From an uncultured delta proteobacterium (GTDB lineage: Bacteria > Desulfobacterota > Zymogenia > Zymogenales > Zymogenaceae), in the NCBI GenBank assembly GCA_963792965.1, contig CAWBYW010000016.1, positions 32,001 to 96,000 on the forward strand: a DNA stretch of 64,000 bases. Direction: 5' to 3'. The notes beneath the pieces are model-generated. The model worked only from the letters and a program-made list of their open reading frames with translations. It had not been told where the DNA came from and did not search any database. Shown one piece after another: positions 2,503 to 37,092 of this stretch (positions are counted from its first letter, which is position 1; each line of letters begins with the position of its first letter). Both the position numbers and the translations under genes were made by a program.

Positions 2503-3162
2503 CTACTTCTTGGTCTGATCCCATGCGTCGGAAAAACGCTTCAGGCCGACATCGGTGAAGGGATGATAGAAGCTGTCCTTGAAGACCTGGAATCCCGCTG
2601 TCACGATGTGGGCGCCGGCAAGCGCCGCGTCGACGATCTGTTTGCCGTTCCTGAGCGCCGCCACGATGATTTCTGTATCAAACTCGTAGATATCAAATAT
2701 ATCCACGATGTCGGCGATGAAATCCGACGTGTCCTCTCCGCTCGATTCTTTCCATCCTACGAACGGGGAGACGTAGCGCGCGCCGACCCGGGCGGCCTGC
2801 AGCGCCTGTGAGGTGGAAAAGACCAGGGTCACGTTGACCTTGACGCCCGCCTTTGCCAGGCTATAGGCGGCAATAAGCCCTTCTTCGTTGCACGGGACCT
2901 TGACGACGAAGTTTTTGGAGATCTTGGCGAGTTTCTTTGCCTCCGCGACCATATCCTCGGCCTTGGTATGGTGCGGGTTGATTTCGACCGAGATGGGGAA
3001 ATCGACACCCTCGAATTCCTTGGCGAGCTCATCCATGACGGCGGCGGCCGTCTTCCCCGCGGCAAGGATATGGCGGGGATTTGTCGTGACGCCGTCGATG
3101 GCCCAGTTCTTATAGGCGTAGGTGATCTCGTCGAATTTCGCCGTGTCCAGGAAATATTTCAT
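2503..3162 (-). CDS. tal: transaldolase / fructose-6-phosphate aldolase family
   Basis: FLDTA, GVTTNP, VVKVP (Schiff-base Lys), NVTLVFS, YVSPFVG, HPFTD; GGAGG RBS. Confidence 0.9.
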   Translation of the reverse strand: MKYFLDTAKFDEITYAYKNWAIDGVTTNPRHILAAGKTAAAVMDELAKEFEGVDFPISVEINPHHTKAEDMVAEAKKLAKISKNFVVKVPCNEEGLIAAYSLAKAGVKVNVTLVFSTSQALQAARVGARYVSPFVGWKESSGEDTSDFIADIVDIFDIYEFDTEIIVAALRNGKQIVDAALAGAHIVTAGFQVFKDSFYHPFTDVGLKRFSDAWDQTKK

Positions 3163-3494
3163 CAGTTTCCTCCCTTTTTTATAGTCGTGTGATAGGTTTC
3201 ATAAAGGTGACATTGAATTATGAGAAAAGGCCTCCAGGTTCGGGGAGGGGTCTTAACGGCTTGTTCACGGCTCAGCTCTCCGCTCACACGGCGGCATCCA
3301 CATGGTATATACATACACAACTCCCGGGGATAAGTCAAGCAAAACGGGAGCGGCCCGACCTATCTTTATCCCGGTCGACGGGCCCTGCCCGGATCATCCC
3401 CGATACCAGGTCTTCAGCCTCAATTCCGTTTCAACGTAACCGGGCCGAAGCGCAGGCGCCGCTGTCGAAAAACGAGTGCACGAACAGAAAAGGC

Positions 3495-3524
3495 TTGACA
3501 ACCCTACACGAAATACCTTAACGT
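3495..3524 (+). promoter_or_regulatory. putative sigma70 promoter of tRNA-Lys/tRNA-Glu
   Basis: TTGACA-N18-TAACGT ending 20 nt before the tRNA. Confidence 0.5.
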
Positions 3525-3544
3525 ATAAGTTCGTGAAAAAATAG

Positions 3545-3620
3545 GGGGCGTTAACTCAGATGGTAGAGTATCTGCCTTTTAAGCAGAGAGTCACTGGTTC
3601 GAGTCCAGTACGCCCTACCA
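3545..3620 (+). tRNA. tRNA-Lys(TTT)
   Basis: GGGGCGT/ACGCCCT acceptor, TCTGC-CTTTTAA-GCAGA anticodon arm, GGTTCGAGTCC T-arm, CCA end. Confidence 0.97.
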
Positions 3621-3807
3621 GAATATTATATCAGGCGGGAGTAATCTCTCGCCGAGGATTTTTGAGATTGCCTCGGTTCCTTGGCACGGGGAGCGGCGCT
3701 GACGCGACACGGTCAGGCGAAAGTTGACCGTGATGAAACGCCGGAATACTCGGAGCTTTCCTCTATCGGATCAGGTGAGATAGAATAGTAACGGAAAATT
3801 GATTAGC

Positions 3808-3885
3808 GACCCCATCGTCTAGTCCGGCCCAGGACATCGGCTTTTCACGCCGACAACAGGGGTTCGAATCCCCTTGGGGTCGCCA
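3808..3885 (+). tRNA. tRNA-Glu(TTC)
   Basis: GACCCCA/TGGGGTC acceptor, TCGGC-TTTTCAC-GCCGA anticodon arm, GGTTCGAATCC, CCA end. Confidence 0.97.
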
Positions 3886-3894
3886 CTAAATCGG

Positions 3895-3924
3895 AAAGCC
3901 GCCCATAATCGGACGGCTTTTCTT
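3895..3924 (+). terminator. intrinsic terminator after tRNA-Glu
   Basis: AAAGCCGCCC-ATAATC-GGACGGCTTTT then T-rich. Confidence 0.7.
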
Positions 3925-4279
3925 CTCGGCGCCTTTTCACGGATCGCGGTCCTTCCTCAACGCCCCGGCCGAGGATCACGGCTAAAACACATCCGATGCC
4001 TTCCCACCACAACCACCGGCAAGGCCCCGTCCTCCCCGGGCGGAGTGGCTTCGGTTCGGGCCGACATGTCCAATAAGCTCTCGAAATGTGCTTCCAGACC
4101 GCATGATCCCCCAAGAAGTTCCCATATACATACAATATACAATTGCGGAATATACTTGACCCCCACGATATTAATTATAAAATATTAATAGTCCCTTCTG
4201 TCATTCGTGACTCATAGCGAGGCGCTCGACTCGGCCAACCACGACTCGCGGATGTCTGCTATTAATAATGAGGTGACCA

Positions 4280-4780
4280 ATGGACCTAAAAGCGGAGATC
4301 GAAAGGAGAAATGTGAACCAGCATAACGCCTTCCTCTTTGCCATATTCGCGGGGATGGTCAACCTCGGGCTTGTGAATCAGGGGGTGGTCAATGAACTGG
4401 CCAAGAAAGTGGCGGGGTACATGATAAACTACTACTCCACCAAAGATGTAGCCTTTGCCCCTCCAGACAGTCCACTGGAAAAGAACGTCTCGTCTCTATT
4501 CAACTTCTTTAACGGGGACCTCAACTTCGTGAAAGAATATGGGATCGAGAAGTCAGGCGACGGCGTTCGGCTTTCCATTGCCAGCCAGTTTTGCAGGATA
4601 TGCCCCAAGGGGCTCGGGGGGGCGGAAATAAAGGGCACACTTTGCCTCATACCCCACTTCTTCATGCACCTGATGAATCACTACCTCCCACCCGAAGAGC
4701 AGCTAATCCTCCCGAAGGGCCAGCCGAGCATCGTGAAAGAATCGGGCAACTGCATCGTCTCGTACGAGCTGATGAAATAA
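4280..4780 (+). CDS. hypothetical protein, V4R/methanogen-output-domain-like with Cys motif
   Basis: 166 aa; helical N-half, CRICPKG...TLCLIP...GNCIVSY four-Cys pattern; GAGGTG RBS. Confidence 0.6.
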   Translation: MDLKAEIERRNVNQHNAFLFAIFAGMVNLGLVNQGVVNELAKKVAGYMINYYSTKDVAFAPPDSPLEKNVSSLFNFFNGDLNFVKEYGIEKSGDGVRLSIASQFCRICPKGLGGAEIKGTLCLIPHFFMHLMNHYLPPEEQLILPKGQPSIVKESGNCIVSYELMK

Positions 4781-4849
4781 AGGTATCTCTGAAAAGTCGT
4801 TCGACATGGGATGACTTCGTGCCCCATTTACGTGAAGGGCCCACGATAC

Positions 4850-4903
4850 ATCTCCTCGGGGTCGCCAGAAAAAAAGACCGCCTGAAAAAAGGGCGGTTCT
4901 TTG
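4850..4903 (+). repeat. degenerate copy of tRNA-Glu 3' end (att-like) plus terminator
   Basis: ATCTCCTCGGGGTCGCCA vs tRNA ATCCCCTTGGGGTCGCCA (16/18), followed by AAGACCGCC-loop-GGGCGGTTCTTT. Confidence 0.65.
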
Positions 4904-5120
4904 TTTGAGTGGGATAATAATGGTAGTTTCTTTGCCTTAGAGTTTCGTTTTCCTAAGGCTAGGAATTGAATATTGTACAGTATAGTATTTCACTTACATT
5001 TATATTTTATTCTTGACTTATACGATCAAAGATATTAAAGATTTACTGATACTTATATCAGATTATCTTAATAAGTTATCTCTATATTCCGTTAACGCTA
5101 ATAGCGAAAGGAGGACTACT

Positions 5121-6197
5121 ATGGCAAGAGAAGTTACTCAAAGAACGCTTACGATAGATGAACTAAAAAGAATAAATAATAATCAGGACTATTCTCTAGA
5201 CTTTATAAGGCGACTTGAACATGTCTTACTGAAGCTTCCTTTGCCAGGTCAAGCAAGGCCGGGGGATTATACCCCCGAAGGAGAAAAAGGGGAGTTTTCC
5301 GAAGCACTCATTGAGGCCATCAAAAATTATCAAGGCGAAACGGAACTAGTAGAAGACGGGGTATTAGGGAAAAATACGTTAAGCTCACTGAGAAAGAAAT
5401 ATCCAGAATACTTAAGTGAGCCGCTTAGAATCATAAGCGGGAATCATAAGGATGGCAGGACAATAATACCCAAGGATACCTCAAAAAAGGATCGATATAG
5501 ATTCTATAAGGAATTGGCTTTAAATCGTTTTGGCATATGGAGAAGTGGTATAAATGAAGCAAACATCGTGGGAGTACGTAGCATGTTAGGCGGAATCCAA
5601 GGGCCAAATACGCCGGATGAATTTAACGATACCATTGCACTCCTGTGGTTCGATGAAAATAAAAAGGAATTCGTTGAAGAATTCGTAGGGAGCGTGGACC
5701 CAGGTAAAATCGCAAATGCAAACTGGATGTGTAAGGATGGATTAGCGCACATCAAGGATGGAACGTATTTTTACTTTATCGGAAGACACCATTCTCGCTA
5801 TCCAACGGCAAATAATAGGATACAAAAAGCAAATAGTGAAAACGAGGAAGGATATTTTGTTGACGTTGACAGTTATATGCGAGAGGGTTCAATGGACTAC
5901 AACTATGAAGCATTGAACTCACACAGACCTGTAAGAGTATATAGGGATATCGAAGTAGCCTACGACTATTTGAATGTGCCCGAGTTAGATAAAAGAGAGT
6001 TCATCGCAAGCGGAGTCGACATACACTTTGCGGCGGAGGGGGGTAAAGTGGGTGACTGGTCCCAGGGTTGCCAGGTAATTAGCGGTGGACCGAATTACGT
6101 GAAATTCATCGGGATTCTAAAAGAGCTGGAAAATAAGTATAGGATACCCTATACCGTCGTGGACGCATCGAAGGTTGAAGAATCCAAGCCTGCTTAA
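5121..6197 (+). CDS. peptidoglycan-binding domain + L,D-transpeptidase-like (YkuD-type) protein
   Basis: AGGAGG RBS before ATG 5121; EAIKNYQ...EDGVLGKNT PG_binding_1 motif; GVDIH...DWSQGCQV His/Cys motif; AT-rich. Confidence 0.7.
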   Translation: MAREVTQRTLTIDELKRINNNQDYSLDFIRRLEHVLLKLPLPGQARPGDYTPEGEKGEFSEALIEAIKNYQGETELVEDGVLGKNTLSSLRKKYPEYLSEPLRIISGNHKDGRTIIPKDTSKKDRYRFYKELALNRFGIWRSGINEANIVGVRSMLGGIQGPNTPDEFNDTIALLWFDENKKEFVEEFVGSVDPGKIANANWMCKDGLAHIKDGTYFYFIGRHHSRYPTANNRIQKANSENEEGYFVDVDSYMREGSMDYNYEALNSHRPVRVYRDIEVAYDYLNVPELDKREFIASGVDIHFAAEGGKVGDWSQGCQVISGGPNYVKFIGILKELENKYRIPYTVVDASKVEESKPA

Positions 6198-6282
6198 ATA
6201 GATATTAAGTGACTTCCGCCGAGGTTTGCCACTACACCTACTCGTGAAACTTCCTCTCACTCAACGCCGAAGGAGATATGAG

Positions 6283-6350
6283 GACAACAGGGGTTCGAAT
6301 CCCGCCGGGTCGCCAGCAATTAAAAGAAGCCGCCATAATGGGCGGCTTTT
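6283..6350 (+). repeat. second degenerate copy of tRNA-Glu 3' half (att-like) plus homologous terminator
   Basis: GACAACAGGGGTTCGAATCCC (21 nt identical to 3852-3872) + GGGTCGCCA; then AAGCCGCCATAATGGGCGGCTTTT, similar to the terminator at 3895. Confidence 0.85.
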
Positions 6351-6358
6351 GTGTTATT

Positions 6359-7663
6359 TCATAACCTTTTCTCTATCAGCTTCATTTGCCATTCTGAAAT
6401 ATCGCTTTCACTTAAATTTAAGTTAAAAACAGAAAAGATCTTCTTTACTATTTCAGCTGCGATTTCCTTGTAAGAAATGCTCAAATCAATTAGTCTTATA
6501 TCATCTCTAATAGGTATGATGCTCTCGTTTGAAATATGAAACGGCGTTAATCTAATAGGTCGATACAATGAAACTAATCTTCTTTCTTTATTACGATGCA
6601 TATCTATTCTAATACCTAAATTATCAAGGCTGGGTATCTGTTCATAGAATCTCTTTAGGAATAGGAAATATTCAGTAATCATAAGAATTACACCCAAATA
6701 ATCTAAAACAGGCTTCCCTTCAGAGCTTTTACCTTCGACATCTTCAGAATAGCACACTCTCCAAATAAACAAACCGCTTTGATATGCTCTGTAAGCTTCG
6801 ATAGACCTCCACGCGTTGCTAAATGATTCTCTACCCTTTAGGAAATTCTGTGAGTTCTTTTCATCAGTATTGGGAACAGGCCACCCACGAAGTCTTACCT
6901 CTGAGTTCCTTATTAGTGCTTTAATTCTTAATGCATCTGATATCCTCTTTGGGTCATACAACAGTGGGAATGACTGAAAATCAATAAATCCGTACTTATC
7001 AGTAGAGTCACCGATCTTTTCGATAAGAAAACCTTTTGTCTCCTCTATTTCAACTTCATACTCTTTTTCAGATTCCTTTGCACCTTTTGGCGGCTTCCCC
7101 TTTATCAAACGTTCTATCTGACTTAGTAGTTCGTTACCCTTTTTAGCAATCGCCCTTCCCAACAATTCCCTCATTTCCTCAGATGACGGAACTGCTTCAC
7201 TGGTTCCCTTTTCGGTTCTAATATATACTTGACCCTTCTTTAGGATTTGTTTCTTATTGTCTACCGAATAGGCATCATCCTTACAGATTATAGGGACTTC
7301 ATTAAACTCAGGTACGTCAATTGTTACGATATATCTTCCGTCAATTATATTTTTATAGACCTGGCACGAATATTTTGGGTCCGTAAACTTATGCAGGTAA
7401 TCATTCACTTTGGTTTGATCAAAGCAATTAAAGTCATCCTCTGACAAACCCTTTAACTCATACTGCTTGTTTTCAACTCCGAAGATTATCTTCCCGCCAT
7501 CTTGAGTATTAAACATAGCAAGAATGTCTTTTACTATTTTTGATTTTTCCTCATGCGAGTCTTTTCCCCAATTTAGTTTTTCTTTATATTCAAGATTCCT
7601 AGTCTCGCTTTTGGTAGCAAGCAAGGCTCTGATTTCCTCTTCCGGTAATTGTGAATTTTGCAT
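6359..7663 (-). CDS. Schlafen/AlbA_2 domain protein with uncharacterised C-terminal domain
   Basis: SETRNLEYKE, DILAMFNTQDGGKIIFGV, VYIRT motifs; AT-rich. Confidence 0.85.
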   Translation of the reverse strand: MQNSQLPEEEIRALLATKSETRNLEYKEKLNWGKDSHEEKSKIVKDILAMFNTQDGGKIIFGVENKQYELKGLSEDDFNCFDQTKVNDYLHKFTDPKYSCQVYKNIIDGRYIVTIDVPEFNEVPIICKDDAYSVDNKKQILKKGQVYIRTEKGTSEAVPSSEEMRELLGRAIAKKGNELLSQIERLIKGKPPKGAKESEKEYEVEIEETKGFLIEKIGDSTDKYGFIDFQSFPLLYDPKRISDALRIKALIRNSEVRLRGWPVPNTDEKNSQNFLKGRESFSNAWRSIEAYRAYQSGLFIWRVCYSEDVEGKSSEGKPVLDYLGVILMITEYFLFLKRFYEQIPSLDNLGIRIDMHRNKERRLVSLYRPIRLTPFHISNESIIPIRDDIRLIDLSISYKEIAAEIVKKIFSVFNLNLSESDISEWQMKLIEKRL

Positions 7664-7749
7664 AATATTTACTCTTAAATAGAGTATCCTATATTAGGCT
7701 TTTAAATAGTACACGCTATCAATAGACCATTTTAACTGACAAAGCAACC

Positions 7750-8542
7750 TTACTCGTTATCAAATTTCGGCTTCTTCTTCTCGATGAACGACCGCGGGCC
7801 CCTCGTGAAAGTCGTGGGTGGGAAGCAGCGTATTGAAGAGCATGCTCTCGATCCTGAGCCCCTCGGTCAGCGGCGTCCCGATGCCGCGCATCGCCGCCTC
7901 CTTGTCCACGCGGATCGCCCCCTGGGGGAACTCGCAGATCATGGACGCCAGCTCCCGCGCCCGCTCGATGAGGTTCCCTTCCACGATCTCGTTGACAAAC
8001 CCGACTCTCAGCGCCTCCGCGGCGTCAAACTCCTTTCCCGTGATGATATAGTACATCGCGTTGCCCAGCCCCATGATCCGGGGGAGCCTCTGCGTCCCGC
8101 CGTCGCCCAGCCCCACGTTCCAGCGCCGCTCCAGGCACCCGAACCGCGCGTGGGCGGCAGCGATCCTGATATCGGCCGCCGCCGCGACCTCCATCCCCCC
8201 GGCAAAACAGACCCCGTTGATCGCCGCGATGATCGGCTTGAAGATATCGATCCCCCGGGTGAAGCCGCCAAATCCTGGGCCGTCATAGGCCCGACGTCTC
8301 AGATAGGTGGGGCTCCCCGCGACCTTCGGGAGATAGCCTTTCAGGTCCGCTCCCGAGCAGAAGGCCCTGTCTCCCGCGCCGGTGATGATCGCCACGAAGG
8401 CGTCCTCGTCGTCCTTGAAGGCGTGCCACGCCTCAACCAACAGGTCCTCCGTCTCGGCGTCGATGCAGTTCATCTTCTCGGGACGGTTGATCGTAATCCA
8501 GAAAAGGTGCCCCTCCTTTTTGTAAAGGACTTTCTCGGCCAT
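7750..8542 (-). CDS. enoyl-CoA hydratase/isomerase (crotonase) family; probable 1-nt indel near C-terminus
   Basis: INRPEKMN, AFCSGADL, KPIIAAINGVCFAGGME; alternative frame gives typical end GPRSFIEKKKPKFDNE*. Confidence 0.9.
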
Positions 8543-30262: not shown

Positions 30263-30338
30263 GGGCCATTAGCTCAATTGGTAGAGCAACTGACTCTTAA
30301 TCAGTAGGTCTCAGGTTCGATCCCTGAATGGCCCACCA
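30263..30338 (+). tRNA. tRNA-Lys(CTT)
   Basis: GGGCCAT/ATGGCCC acceptor, ACTGA-CTCTTAA-TCAGT, CCA end. Confidence 0.97.
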
Positions 30339-30366
30339 TTTTTCTTCCGGTACGTTCCGCCGAGCA

Positions 30367-30452
<86 letters not shown>

Positions 30453-36814: not shown

Positions 36815-36890
36815 GGGCGGATAGCTCAGCTGGTAGAGCACCGGCCTTACAAGCCGGGGGTCACAGGTTCAAACCCTGTTCCGCCTACCA
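36815..36890 (+). tRNA. tRNA-Val(TAC)
   Basis: GGGCGGA/TCCGCCT acceptor, CCGGC-CTTACAA-GCCGG, CCA end. Confidence 0.97.
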
Positions 36891-37015
36891 TATCATACAT
36901 ACCCGGGAGGACGGAGAAGAGCGAGACACGGTCGGTTTCCCCAAGACATAACGACCGCCGCGATTGCCGGTGCATCAGATAGAAAGAGGAGCTCGGGAAA
37001 CAGAAATAAGAAAGA

Positions 37016-37092
<77 letters not shown>

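Follow-up and report, generated by a model that had tools for sequence, protein, structure and literature searches.

A probable hot spot of site-specific integration with eroded tandem islands behind a tRNA-Glu gene of an uncultured delta proteobacterium

How did the 3' end of one tRNA gene come to be repeated, each time with a terminator-like hairpin behind it, along a row of single genes? This question is raised by a locus of an uncultured delta proteobacterium of the family Zymogenaceae (assembly GCA_963792965.1), which we analysed within 64,000 nucleotides (nt) of contig CAWBYW010000016.1 (positions 32,001 to 96,000, forward strand; called the window below, coordinates being counted from its first letter). 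A sequence-only reading of the region behind a tRNA-Glu gene had left two explanations open, either heavily eroded tandem islands or a cassette-like system in which one-gene modules are stacked at the tRNA by an integrase acting in trans. We found that the former fits the locus and that the latter gained no support. Indeed, the relics are not uniform, recombinase-bearing islands lie at the same tRNA in two relatives (G004 and G006), and two others (G005 and G007) carry a tRNA-Glu relic of their own; on the other side, the first module is host-like, there is one foreign block rather than a series, and no candidate integrase was found in the assembly, which is 88.85% complete. The stretch from tRNA-Glu to an enoyl-CoA hydratase gene (ECH1) is thus likely to be a hot spot of site-specific integration, in which eroded tandem islands remain that resemble the remnants described as cis-mobilisable elements (CIMEs).

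The anchor of the array is tRNA-Glu(UUC) at 3808-3885 on the forward strand, with an encoded CCA (ARAGORN; 60.3 bits with the Rfam tRNA model), and its upstream partner is tRNA-Lys(UUU) at 3545-3620 on the same strand (ARAGORN). When the stretch was searched with Rfam, these two tRNAs were the only hits above threshold. We could confirm that the 3' end of tRNA-Glu recurs twice on the forward strand. The first relic, c2 (4850-4867), agrees with the last 18 nt of the tRNA at 16 of 18 positions, and its likeness is limited to these 18 nt, the 21 nt before it resembling the tRNA at chance level. With up to three mismatches allowed, c2 is the sole match in the window besides the tRNA itself, where 0.08 are expected from shuffled sequences and none of 100 shuffles gave two matches; in the whole genome (3.36 Mb, both strands) the same 18 nt have eight other matches, each with three mismatches. 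The second relic, c3 (6283-6315), opens with an exact repeat of tRNA positions 3852-3872 (6283-6303, 21/21, 0 expected by chance), continues as GCCGGGTCGCCA where the tRNA has CTTGGGGTCGCCA, a difference of three substitutions and a 1-nt deletion, and closes with an exact 9-mer, GGGTCGCCA (9/9). Rfam scores c3 at 9.7 bits, as a T-arm piece of tmRNA/tRNA. Both c2 and c3 are above chance. In its 21-nt block, c3 agrees letter for letter with this lineage's tRNA, and other genera of the family differ there. A 22-mer holding the c3 variant had no match in the species-genome contigs, and c3 is therefore not the 3' end of a real tRNA there. The copies are unequal, with a gene of 78 nt followed by pieces of 18 nt and 33 nt, both of which are damaged.

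A GC hairpin with a T-run stands behind all three 3' ends, as the sequence-only reading had described, and is set off from them by about 8-10 nt rich in A. The hairpin of the tRNA itself, T1 (3893-3922, forward strand; -16.1 kcal/mol, z -4.2), has one internal mismatch and was missed by a simple hairpin scan. T2 covers 4876-4908 on the same strand (4876-4898 as listed by the scan; -14.7 kcal/mol), and T3 (6325-6350; -17.3 kcal/mol) is a bidirectional hairpin of 10 pairs that the scan lists on both strands. The z values of the three folds lie between -3.7 and -4.2, and the hairpins at 3895 and 6326 are indeed alike. By aligning them with the tRNA-Glu loci of four relatives, we found that T1, T2 and T3 form one family, AGCCGCCC-loop-GGGCGGCT, to which the tRNA-Glu terminators of G009, G005, G007 and G002 also belong. 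The repeated unit is therefore a 'tRNA-Glu 3' end + tRNA-Glu terminator'.

Each interval holds one supported gene, again as read from the sequence, and the modules measure 1-1.5 kb. The first encodes a four-cysteine protein of 166 amino acids (aa) at 4280-4780 on the forward strand, the second a protein of 358 aa, in which PG_binding_1 forms the N-terminal and a phrog_3000 match the C-terminal domain, at 5121-6197 on the same strand, and the third, behind c3, a 434-aa Schlafen/AlbA_2 protein at 6359-7663 on the reverse strand, whose stop codon lies 9 nt from the end of T3. These three intervals are not equivalent. The GC content at third codon positions (GC3) is 0.71 in the 166-aa gene, 0.42 in the peptidoglycan (PG)-binding gene and 0.35 in the Schlafen gene, against 0.77-0.84 in the neighbouring core genes, and a GC content of 0.42 or less occurs in just 0.5% of the 5099 windows of 1.3 kb in the genome. 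In trinucleotide use the PG-binding and Schlafen modules agree with each other (r=0.90) and are both negatively correlated with the core, to which the 166-aa module is positively correlated (about 0.6). The PG-binding and Schlafen genes are thus one AT-rich foreign block of 2.85 kb, from about 4900 to 7748, split by c3. This block starts directly after T2, and its right edge is AT-rich DNA (7664-7748) with neither a tRNA fragment nor a GC hairpin.

We then compared the locus with nine other species of the family, none of them of the same genus, in eight of which tRNA-Glu(UUC) could be located, and with a collection of metagenome contigs, where the 45-nt 3' half of tRNA-Glu used as a query retrieved two loci, L036 and L037. 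The tRNA-Lys/tRNA-Glu pair is kept in G009, G005, G007, G002 and G003. In G009, which represents a related genus, the order is tRNA-Lys, tRNA-Glu, terminator, 166-aa gene, hemerythrin gene, ECH1 (87% identity), a second hydratase, glyoxalase and aminotransferase. In L037, tRNA-Glu and its terminator are followed by the 166-aa gene, a second terminator of the tRNA-Glu type, about 65 nt, and ECH1 (85%). The AT-rich block is absent from both, and in G009 the hemerythrin gene stands in its place. Similarity to both resumes at about 7749, 11 nt past the ECH1 stop codon and without any repeat, although the intergenic DNA is too diverged for base-exact breakpoints. The conserved right flank, ECH1 itself, lies at 7760-8542 on the reverse strand and is 85-87% identical in G009, L037 and G004. 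The sequence-only reading had proposed to ask whether gene content changes among relatives in units bounded by the repeats; the only visible difference between the window and G009 or L037 is the whole 2.85-kb block, and no single module differs. Taking foreign composition together with presence or absence in relatives singles out 4900-7748 and leaves the 166-aa module aside. Since the 166-aa gene is host-like and occupies the same place in G009 and L037, it is old and inherited (protein identity 76-77% between the window and G009, 77-78% between the window and L037, and 88% between L037 and G009). The second terminator of L037 may be the orthologue of T2, since MAFFT pairs it with c2 and T2, or of T3, for which its role as the terminator of ECH1 argues. 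Because it sits between the 166-aa gene and ECH1, it probably serves as a terminator for both sides, and such a role for neighbouring genes would account for the better preservation of the hairpins compared with the tRNA parts.

The remaining relatives indicate what kind of site this is. In G004, a 503-aa large serine recombinase abuts the 3' end of tRNA-Glu; behind it come MerR, a type I restriction-modification system and a fragment of GmrSD. The frame of this recombinase (L033, 10915-12426) overlaps the tRNA gene, on the complementary strand, by about 40 nt. In G006, the abutting gene is a tyrosine integrase frame of 399 aa that contains a single in-frame TAG. With a recombinase gene next to tRNA-Glu in two of the eight family relatives, the site is a genuine integration hot spot. 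In G005 and G007, a V4R-domain gene on the opposite strand is bounded by a decayed 3' half of tRNA-Glu (from the anticodon loop on) with its terminator, 1.1 kb downstream of the tRNA, and a paralogous hydratase and glyoxalase come after it; this relic is independent of the copies in the window. The interval of G002 holds an AT-rich rhomboid-TPR gene and two others (rhomboid-TPR/CdhD/methyltransferase), and G003 and G008 added nothing further on the question of islands. Thus the region from tRNA-Glu to glyoxalase is hypervariable in the family.

If islands were inserted here, one may ask where the recombinases are. The locus had been described as lacking an integrase, and this holds: PF00589 and PF00239 have no match in the window, and between 3800 and 7800 the G006 integrase and the serine recombinase of G004, used as tblastn queries, gave nothing but trivial matches. 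The integrase remnants that would mark the intervals as ordinary decayed islands were thus looked for in that range and not found. A search for a tRNA-Glu-targeting integrase in the whole assembly (G000, 3.36 Mb, 57.6% GC, 88.85% complete) gave two full tyrosine recombinases, XerD (373 bits, above cut-off) and an XerC-like protein, which stay far below the cut-offs of integron-integrase models, and three tyrosine recombinase fragments on contig C10; no serine recombinase was found in this assembly. Other members of the family have 2 to 11 PF00589 matches, including frames of 365-448 aa that are not of Xer size.

By searching within 40 kb of each of the 49 tRNAs for a copy of its own 3' part, we found that tRNA-Glu is not alone. 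At seven further tRNA loci, copies that are not themselves tRNA genes lie on the same strand, 1-23 kb downstream (contigs C7, C9, C10, C12 and C13 of G000; L038-L045), and the blocks bounded by them hold ordinary cargo. The copy of tRNA-Leu(UAA), 3.9 kb away, is 59/60 identical and extends over about 50 nt of downstream hairpin (about 110 nt in total). Those of tRNA-Pro(UGG), 13.4 kb away, and tRNA-Thr(CGU), 23 kb away, are perfect over 45 nt and 47 nt, respectively; that of tRNA-Arg(UCG) repeats 47 nt from inside the gene, next to which lies a fragment of an integrase; that of tRNA-Leu(CAA) spans about 55 nt with compensatory T-stem changes; and that of tRNA-Val(CAC) reaches 16/18 only. tRNA-Pro(GGG) (C12:26581-26658) has one copy 1.1 kb and another 4.5 kb away, both of them accompanied by the terminator of this tRNA, and the array extends over 26.6-31.1 kb of C12. 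No recombinase in or beside these seven blocks appeared in Pfam scans of 51 open reading frames (ORFs; E<=1e-5) and 15 ORFs (E<=0.5), which took 51 of the 87 listed ORFs, those left out lying mostly mid-way in the two largest blocks. Given these seven loci with alike footprints, the tRNA-Glu array is one case of a genome-wide pattern and not a special device. The genome-wide scan gave no 3'-part copies for the other two tRNA pairs of the window, Lys(CUU)-Leu(UAG) at 30263-30452 and Val(UAC)-Asp(GUC) at 36815-37092.

How integration could have produced such an array follows from what has been described elsewhere. According to the Islander study (PMC4383910), elements that target tRNA genes restore the gene with their own 3' copy, the old 3' part stays behind as a displaced fragment, and tandem arrays occur. 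The work on the Dehalococcoides ssrA islands (PMC3146451) describes tandem islands with 20-bp repeats and an integration module in 16 of 31. CIMEs are defined, in PMC5704250, within a three-step scheme where an element decays to a CIME and a newcomer accretes at the resident attachment (att) site. At our locus, an element would have recombined with the 3' part of the tRNA, bringing a replacement 3' end and terminator and leaving the former ones at its far side as a displaced fragment; internal deletions would then have stripped the recombinase and mobility genes, so that short cargo remained between decaying att copies. Two layers may be distinguished. An old insertion with the 166-aa gene would have duplicated the 'tRNA end + terminator', both terminators being still present in L037. 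The 2.85 kb of AT-rich DNA would have come in recently, not at the tRNA but at the relic that lies behind the 166-aa gene. A recombination between the site of the element and the older relic could account for c2 being tRNA-like on its 3' side only and for c3 being perfect on its 5' side and damaged mid-way. The Schlafen gene is not explained by this relic-site step and may represent a separate event or part of a larger element since deleted.

Several observations do not sit easily with this scheme. No tRNA fragment was found behind the 166-aa gene of G009, and L037 keeps a recognisable copy of the terminator only, not of the tRNA part. The four changes in c3 all fall into a stretch of 6 nt with a perfect block on either side, a pattern unlike uniform decay. 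The Schlafen gene lacks a distal tRNA fragment. The module next to the tRNA is the oldest one, the reverse of what simple accretion at the tRNA would give, and the scheme therefore needs integration at a relic site. Moreover, since no interval holds an integrase remnant, it is the repeats and the composition that argue for an island origin of each module. Finally, all eight footprints of the genome (8/8) lack an intact integrase, which is more than expected from random decay.

Could the locus be explained without tandem islands? One alternative is a turnover of the hot spot, where c2 and c3 would be scars of older, unrelated integrations and the AT-rich DNA would have arrived, whole or in two pieces, through illegitimate recombination or through homologous recombination in the conserved flanks (tRNA/ECH1). 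The close composition of the PG-binding and Schlafen modules (r=0.90) and the right edge without a repeat are in line with it, as are the interval contents, which differ in every relative examined (hemerythrin, V4R-domain gene, rhomboid-TPR/CdhD/methyltransferase, none), and the 45%-identical Schlafen homologue of G004, a single-gene AT-rich islet elsewhere in that genome. However, c3 and T3 are GC-rich and of host type and yet lie inside the AT-rich block, c2 and T2 stand exactly at its left edge, and such a co-location with both units would be unlikely if they were unrelated to it; also, the 21-nt block of c3 is the tRNA of this lineage, unlike that of other genera of the family. We consider turnover unlikely. 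A different doubt concerns c2, which could be a chance match beside an ordinary terminator, c3 being then the sole true relic of one island remnant and no array existing. Indeed, c2 is 18 nt long with two mismatches, the sequence upstream is unlike the tRNA, and this genome family has many hairpins of the GCCGCC/GGCGGC kind (L046, for instance, starts with one). Nevertheless, no other site with two or fewer mismatches exists on either strand of the 3.36 Mb, 0.08 are expected per 64 kb even at three or fewer, and c2 lies on the strand of the tRNA, with the hairpin spacing of the tRNA end and at a composition boundary, so that this explanation has very little left in its favour.

The cassette-like alternative, that is an active cassette- or CIME-like system whose one-gene modules between 'tRNA 3' end + terminator' units are moved by the trans-acting integrase of a helper outside the assembly, draws on the modules of 1-1.5 kb with one gene and a promoter region each, and on the same unit architecture at tRNA-Pro(GGG) and, decayed, in G005 and G007. 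The assembly has no non-Xer recombinase, yet eight tRNA loci carry footprints, several of them perfect over 45-47 nt, and cis-mobilisation of elements without an integrase is documented (PMC5704250). Against it, the three repeat copies are unequal and damaged, not uniform sites; the 166-aa module is of host type and stays fixed in lineages whose proteins differ by 23%; the comparators differ by the whole AT-rich block and not by single modules; and the Schlafen module has no distal site. No helper integrase was found, in an assembly that is 88.85% complete, so its absence from the genome is not proven. Altogether we regard an active cassette system as improbable. A wider form of the idea appears more doubtful still, namely that the 'tRNA 3' end + terminator' units are reusable sites at which the trans-acting recombinase of an unbinned helper stacks and exchanges promoter-bearing modules of one or two genes, defence-type ones included, at many tRNAs (Glu, Pro, Leu, Thr, Arg and others). 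If true, it would explain the 8/8 integrase-less footprints with several repeats still perfect. We also considered a retro-copy, as the repeat unit corresponds to the 3' end of the tRNA primary transcript and hints at reverse transcription; this idea was dropped because the assembly has no reverse transcriptase (PF00078).

Taken as eroded tandem islands, the locus would be of a known kind, decayed islands or CIME-like remnants at a tRNA gene (tDNA), and an ordinary scar of gene transfer rather than a new cassette system. The Dehalococcoides ssrA islands (PMC3146451) are similar in standing in tandem behind one small-RNA gene with direct repeats of its 3' end, and many of them are without an integration module (15/31 there), with cargo that varies among strains there. 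Unlike those islands, the modules here are far smaller, each having a single gene in 1-1.5 kb, and none in this genome has kept a recombinase. The repeats differ from one another and show damage, the terminator of the tRNA forms part of the repeat unit, and the proximal module is old and host-like. In the CIMEs and site-specific accretion of the ICESt1/ICESt3 type, as given in PMC5704250, genes for integration and transfer are lost, att sites are kept, and newcomers enter the resident att site to form tandems. The intervals in the window have no integration or transfer genes, and the putative att copies are present but degenerate, c3 having a 1-nt deletion; unlike CIMEs of that type, they have no known helper, and it is a tRNA gene of an uncultured lineage that is targeted. 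With the islands of Islander (PMC4383910) the locus shares an intact tDNA and 3' fragments in the same orientation as end points, identity starting in the variable/T-arm region. Since that method requires an integrase for each island, and the intervals here offer an intact tRNA and a displaced fragment in the same orientation with no integrase inside, they would be filtered out. Finally, the array recalls integron cassettes by its short, mostly single-gene units, structured repeats and fixed anchor. Unlike integrons, it has no integron integrase, its repeats are a tRNA fragment and plain terminators instead of attC sites, its genes have AT-rich leaders that resemble promoters, and one of them, the Schlafen gene, stands in the opposite orientation.

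The locus thus offers a clean and small example of how a tRNA-linked hot spot gains and erodes foreign genes in an uncultured lineage, with single-gene remnants such as a Schlafen/AlbA_2 gene of defence type and the gene of a rare, phage-like protein that binds the cell wall. Remnants without an integrase can be recognised by the displaced tRNA fragment together with the duplicated terminator, and island finders that require an integrase discard them. That integrases are missing throughout the genome beside eight such footprints might alone be worth a look at the population level; otherwise the locus is ordinary. The sequence-only reading had also suggested looking for reads across excision or circle junctions. 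One public read run contained 6% of the words, its short contigs giving perfect cover only at 3615-3767, 3826-4008 and 4351-4501, the AT-rich part being uncovered; the rest were tRNA matches from other organisms, and both listed 'joints' were tRNA-to-tRNA cross-matches, so that no valid junction was obtained. The end of tRNA-Glu extended by CTAAA (25 nt) had no match in the metagenome contig collection.

Regarding the genes themselves, the product of the 166-aa gene had been labelled V4R-like. By sequence this label did not hold, as none of the seven members of the family (0/7) matches Pfam V4R (PF02830) and hhalign against the true V4R proteins of the relatives gave a probability of 0.1%. The protein belongs to no Pfam, NCBIfam, PADLOC or PHROG family, and its four cysteines are invariant in an alignment of its relatives. 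With an AlphaFold model (pLDDT, a per-residue confidence score, of 77.5), Foldseek found weak matches to BcsD, H-NOX, Bet3/TRAPP and a MopR sensor domain (TM score 0.5-0.6, best E 2e-3), folds that are grouped with V4R. 'V4R-like' may thus be, at best, a hint at the level of the predicted fold. A promoter-like region precedes the gene at 4120-4190 on the forward strand (TTGACC-16-TAAAAT at 4156-4183). By eye, a block TATACA(A/G)TATAC..TTGAC stands upstream of the gene in the window, G009 and L037 alike and resembles a promoter with a palindromic operator. True V4R proteins (PF02830) are encoded first after tRNA-Glu in L019 (G005, 3130-3747) and L020 (G007, 2176-2664), and another near tRNA-Glu in L035 (G008, 810-1571), where its neighbours are a sigma-54 activator and a fragmentary member of the 166-aa gene family. 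Between these V4R proteins and the 166-aa protein of the window, no relation could be detected by sequence.

The second gene had been read as a PG-binding, L,D-transpeptidase-like protein, of which the first half stood, narrowly: PG_binding_1 passes with 23.8 bits against a cut-off of 23. An L,D-transpeptidase (YkuD) domain was not detected by Pfam in the 358-aa protein, and sequence searches of the PDB returned PG-binding domains only (E >= 0.2). A conserved H...S-x-G-C in its alignment resembles the YkuD motif. The C-terminal domain matches phrog_3000 (3.1e-16), and seven phage records hold hypothetical proteins that are 24-25% identical over this domain. Homologues of the 358-aa protein are rare, with only three among 5.8 billion proteins (36-38% identity) and none confirmed in the species-genome or viral contig collections.

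That an AT-rich Schlafen gene follows the last tRNA copy was borne out by an AlbA_2 match (PF04326, E 1.9e-16) together with its low GC3, and no tRNA fragment was found beyond this gene. Its product also matches, over the N-terminal 145 residues only, the candidate defence family PDC-S50 (PADLOC PDLC05032, E 6.7e-14), which makes it a putative defence-type gene. It has 175 homologues, the best with 56% identity, under source names that span several phyla. The homologue of G004 mentioned above lies at L046 (contig C43, 183-1475), where the islet has a GC content of 0.25-0.34 in surroundings of normal GC. A GCCGCC...GGCGGC hairpin precedes this homologue at the start of the contig, an unrelated contig position. 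In L036, a metagenome locus of the same clade, AT-rich DNA (GC 0.32-0.43) lies directly behind tRNA-Glu and its terminator up to the end of the contig after 1.3 kb, with a 203-aa ORF that fits no family and a gene for a DUF2085 membrane protein.

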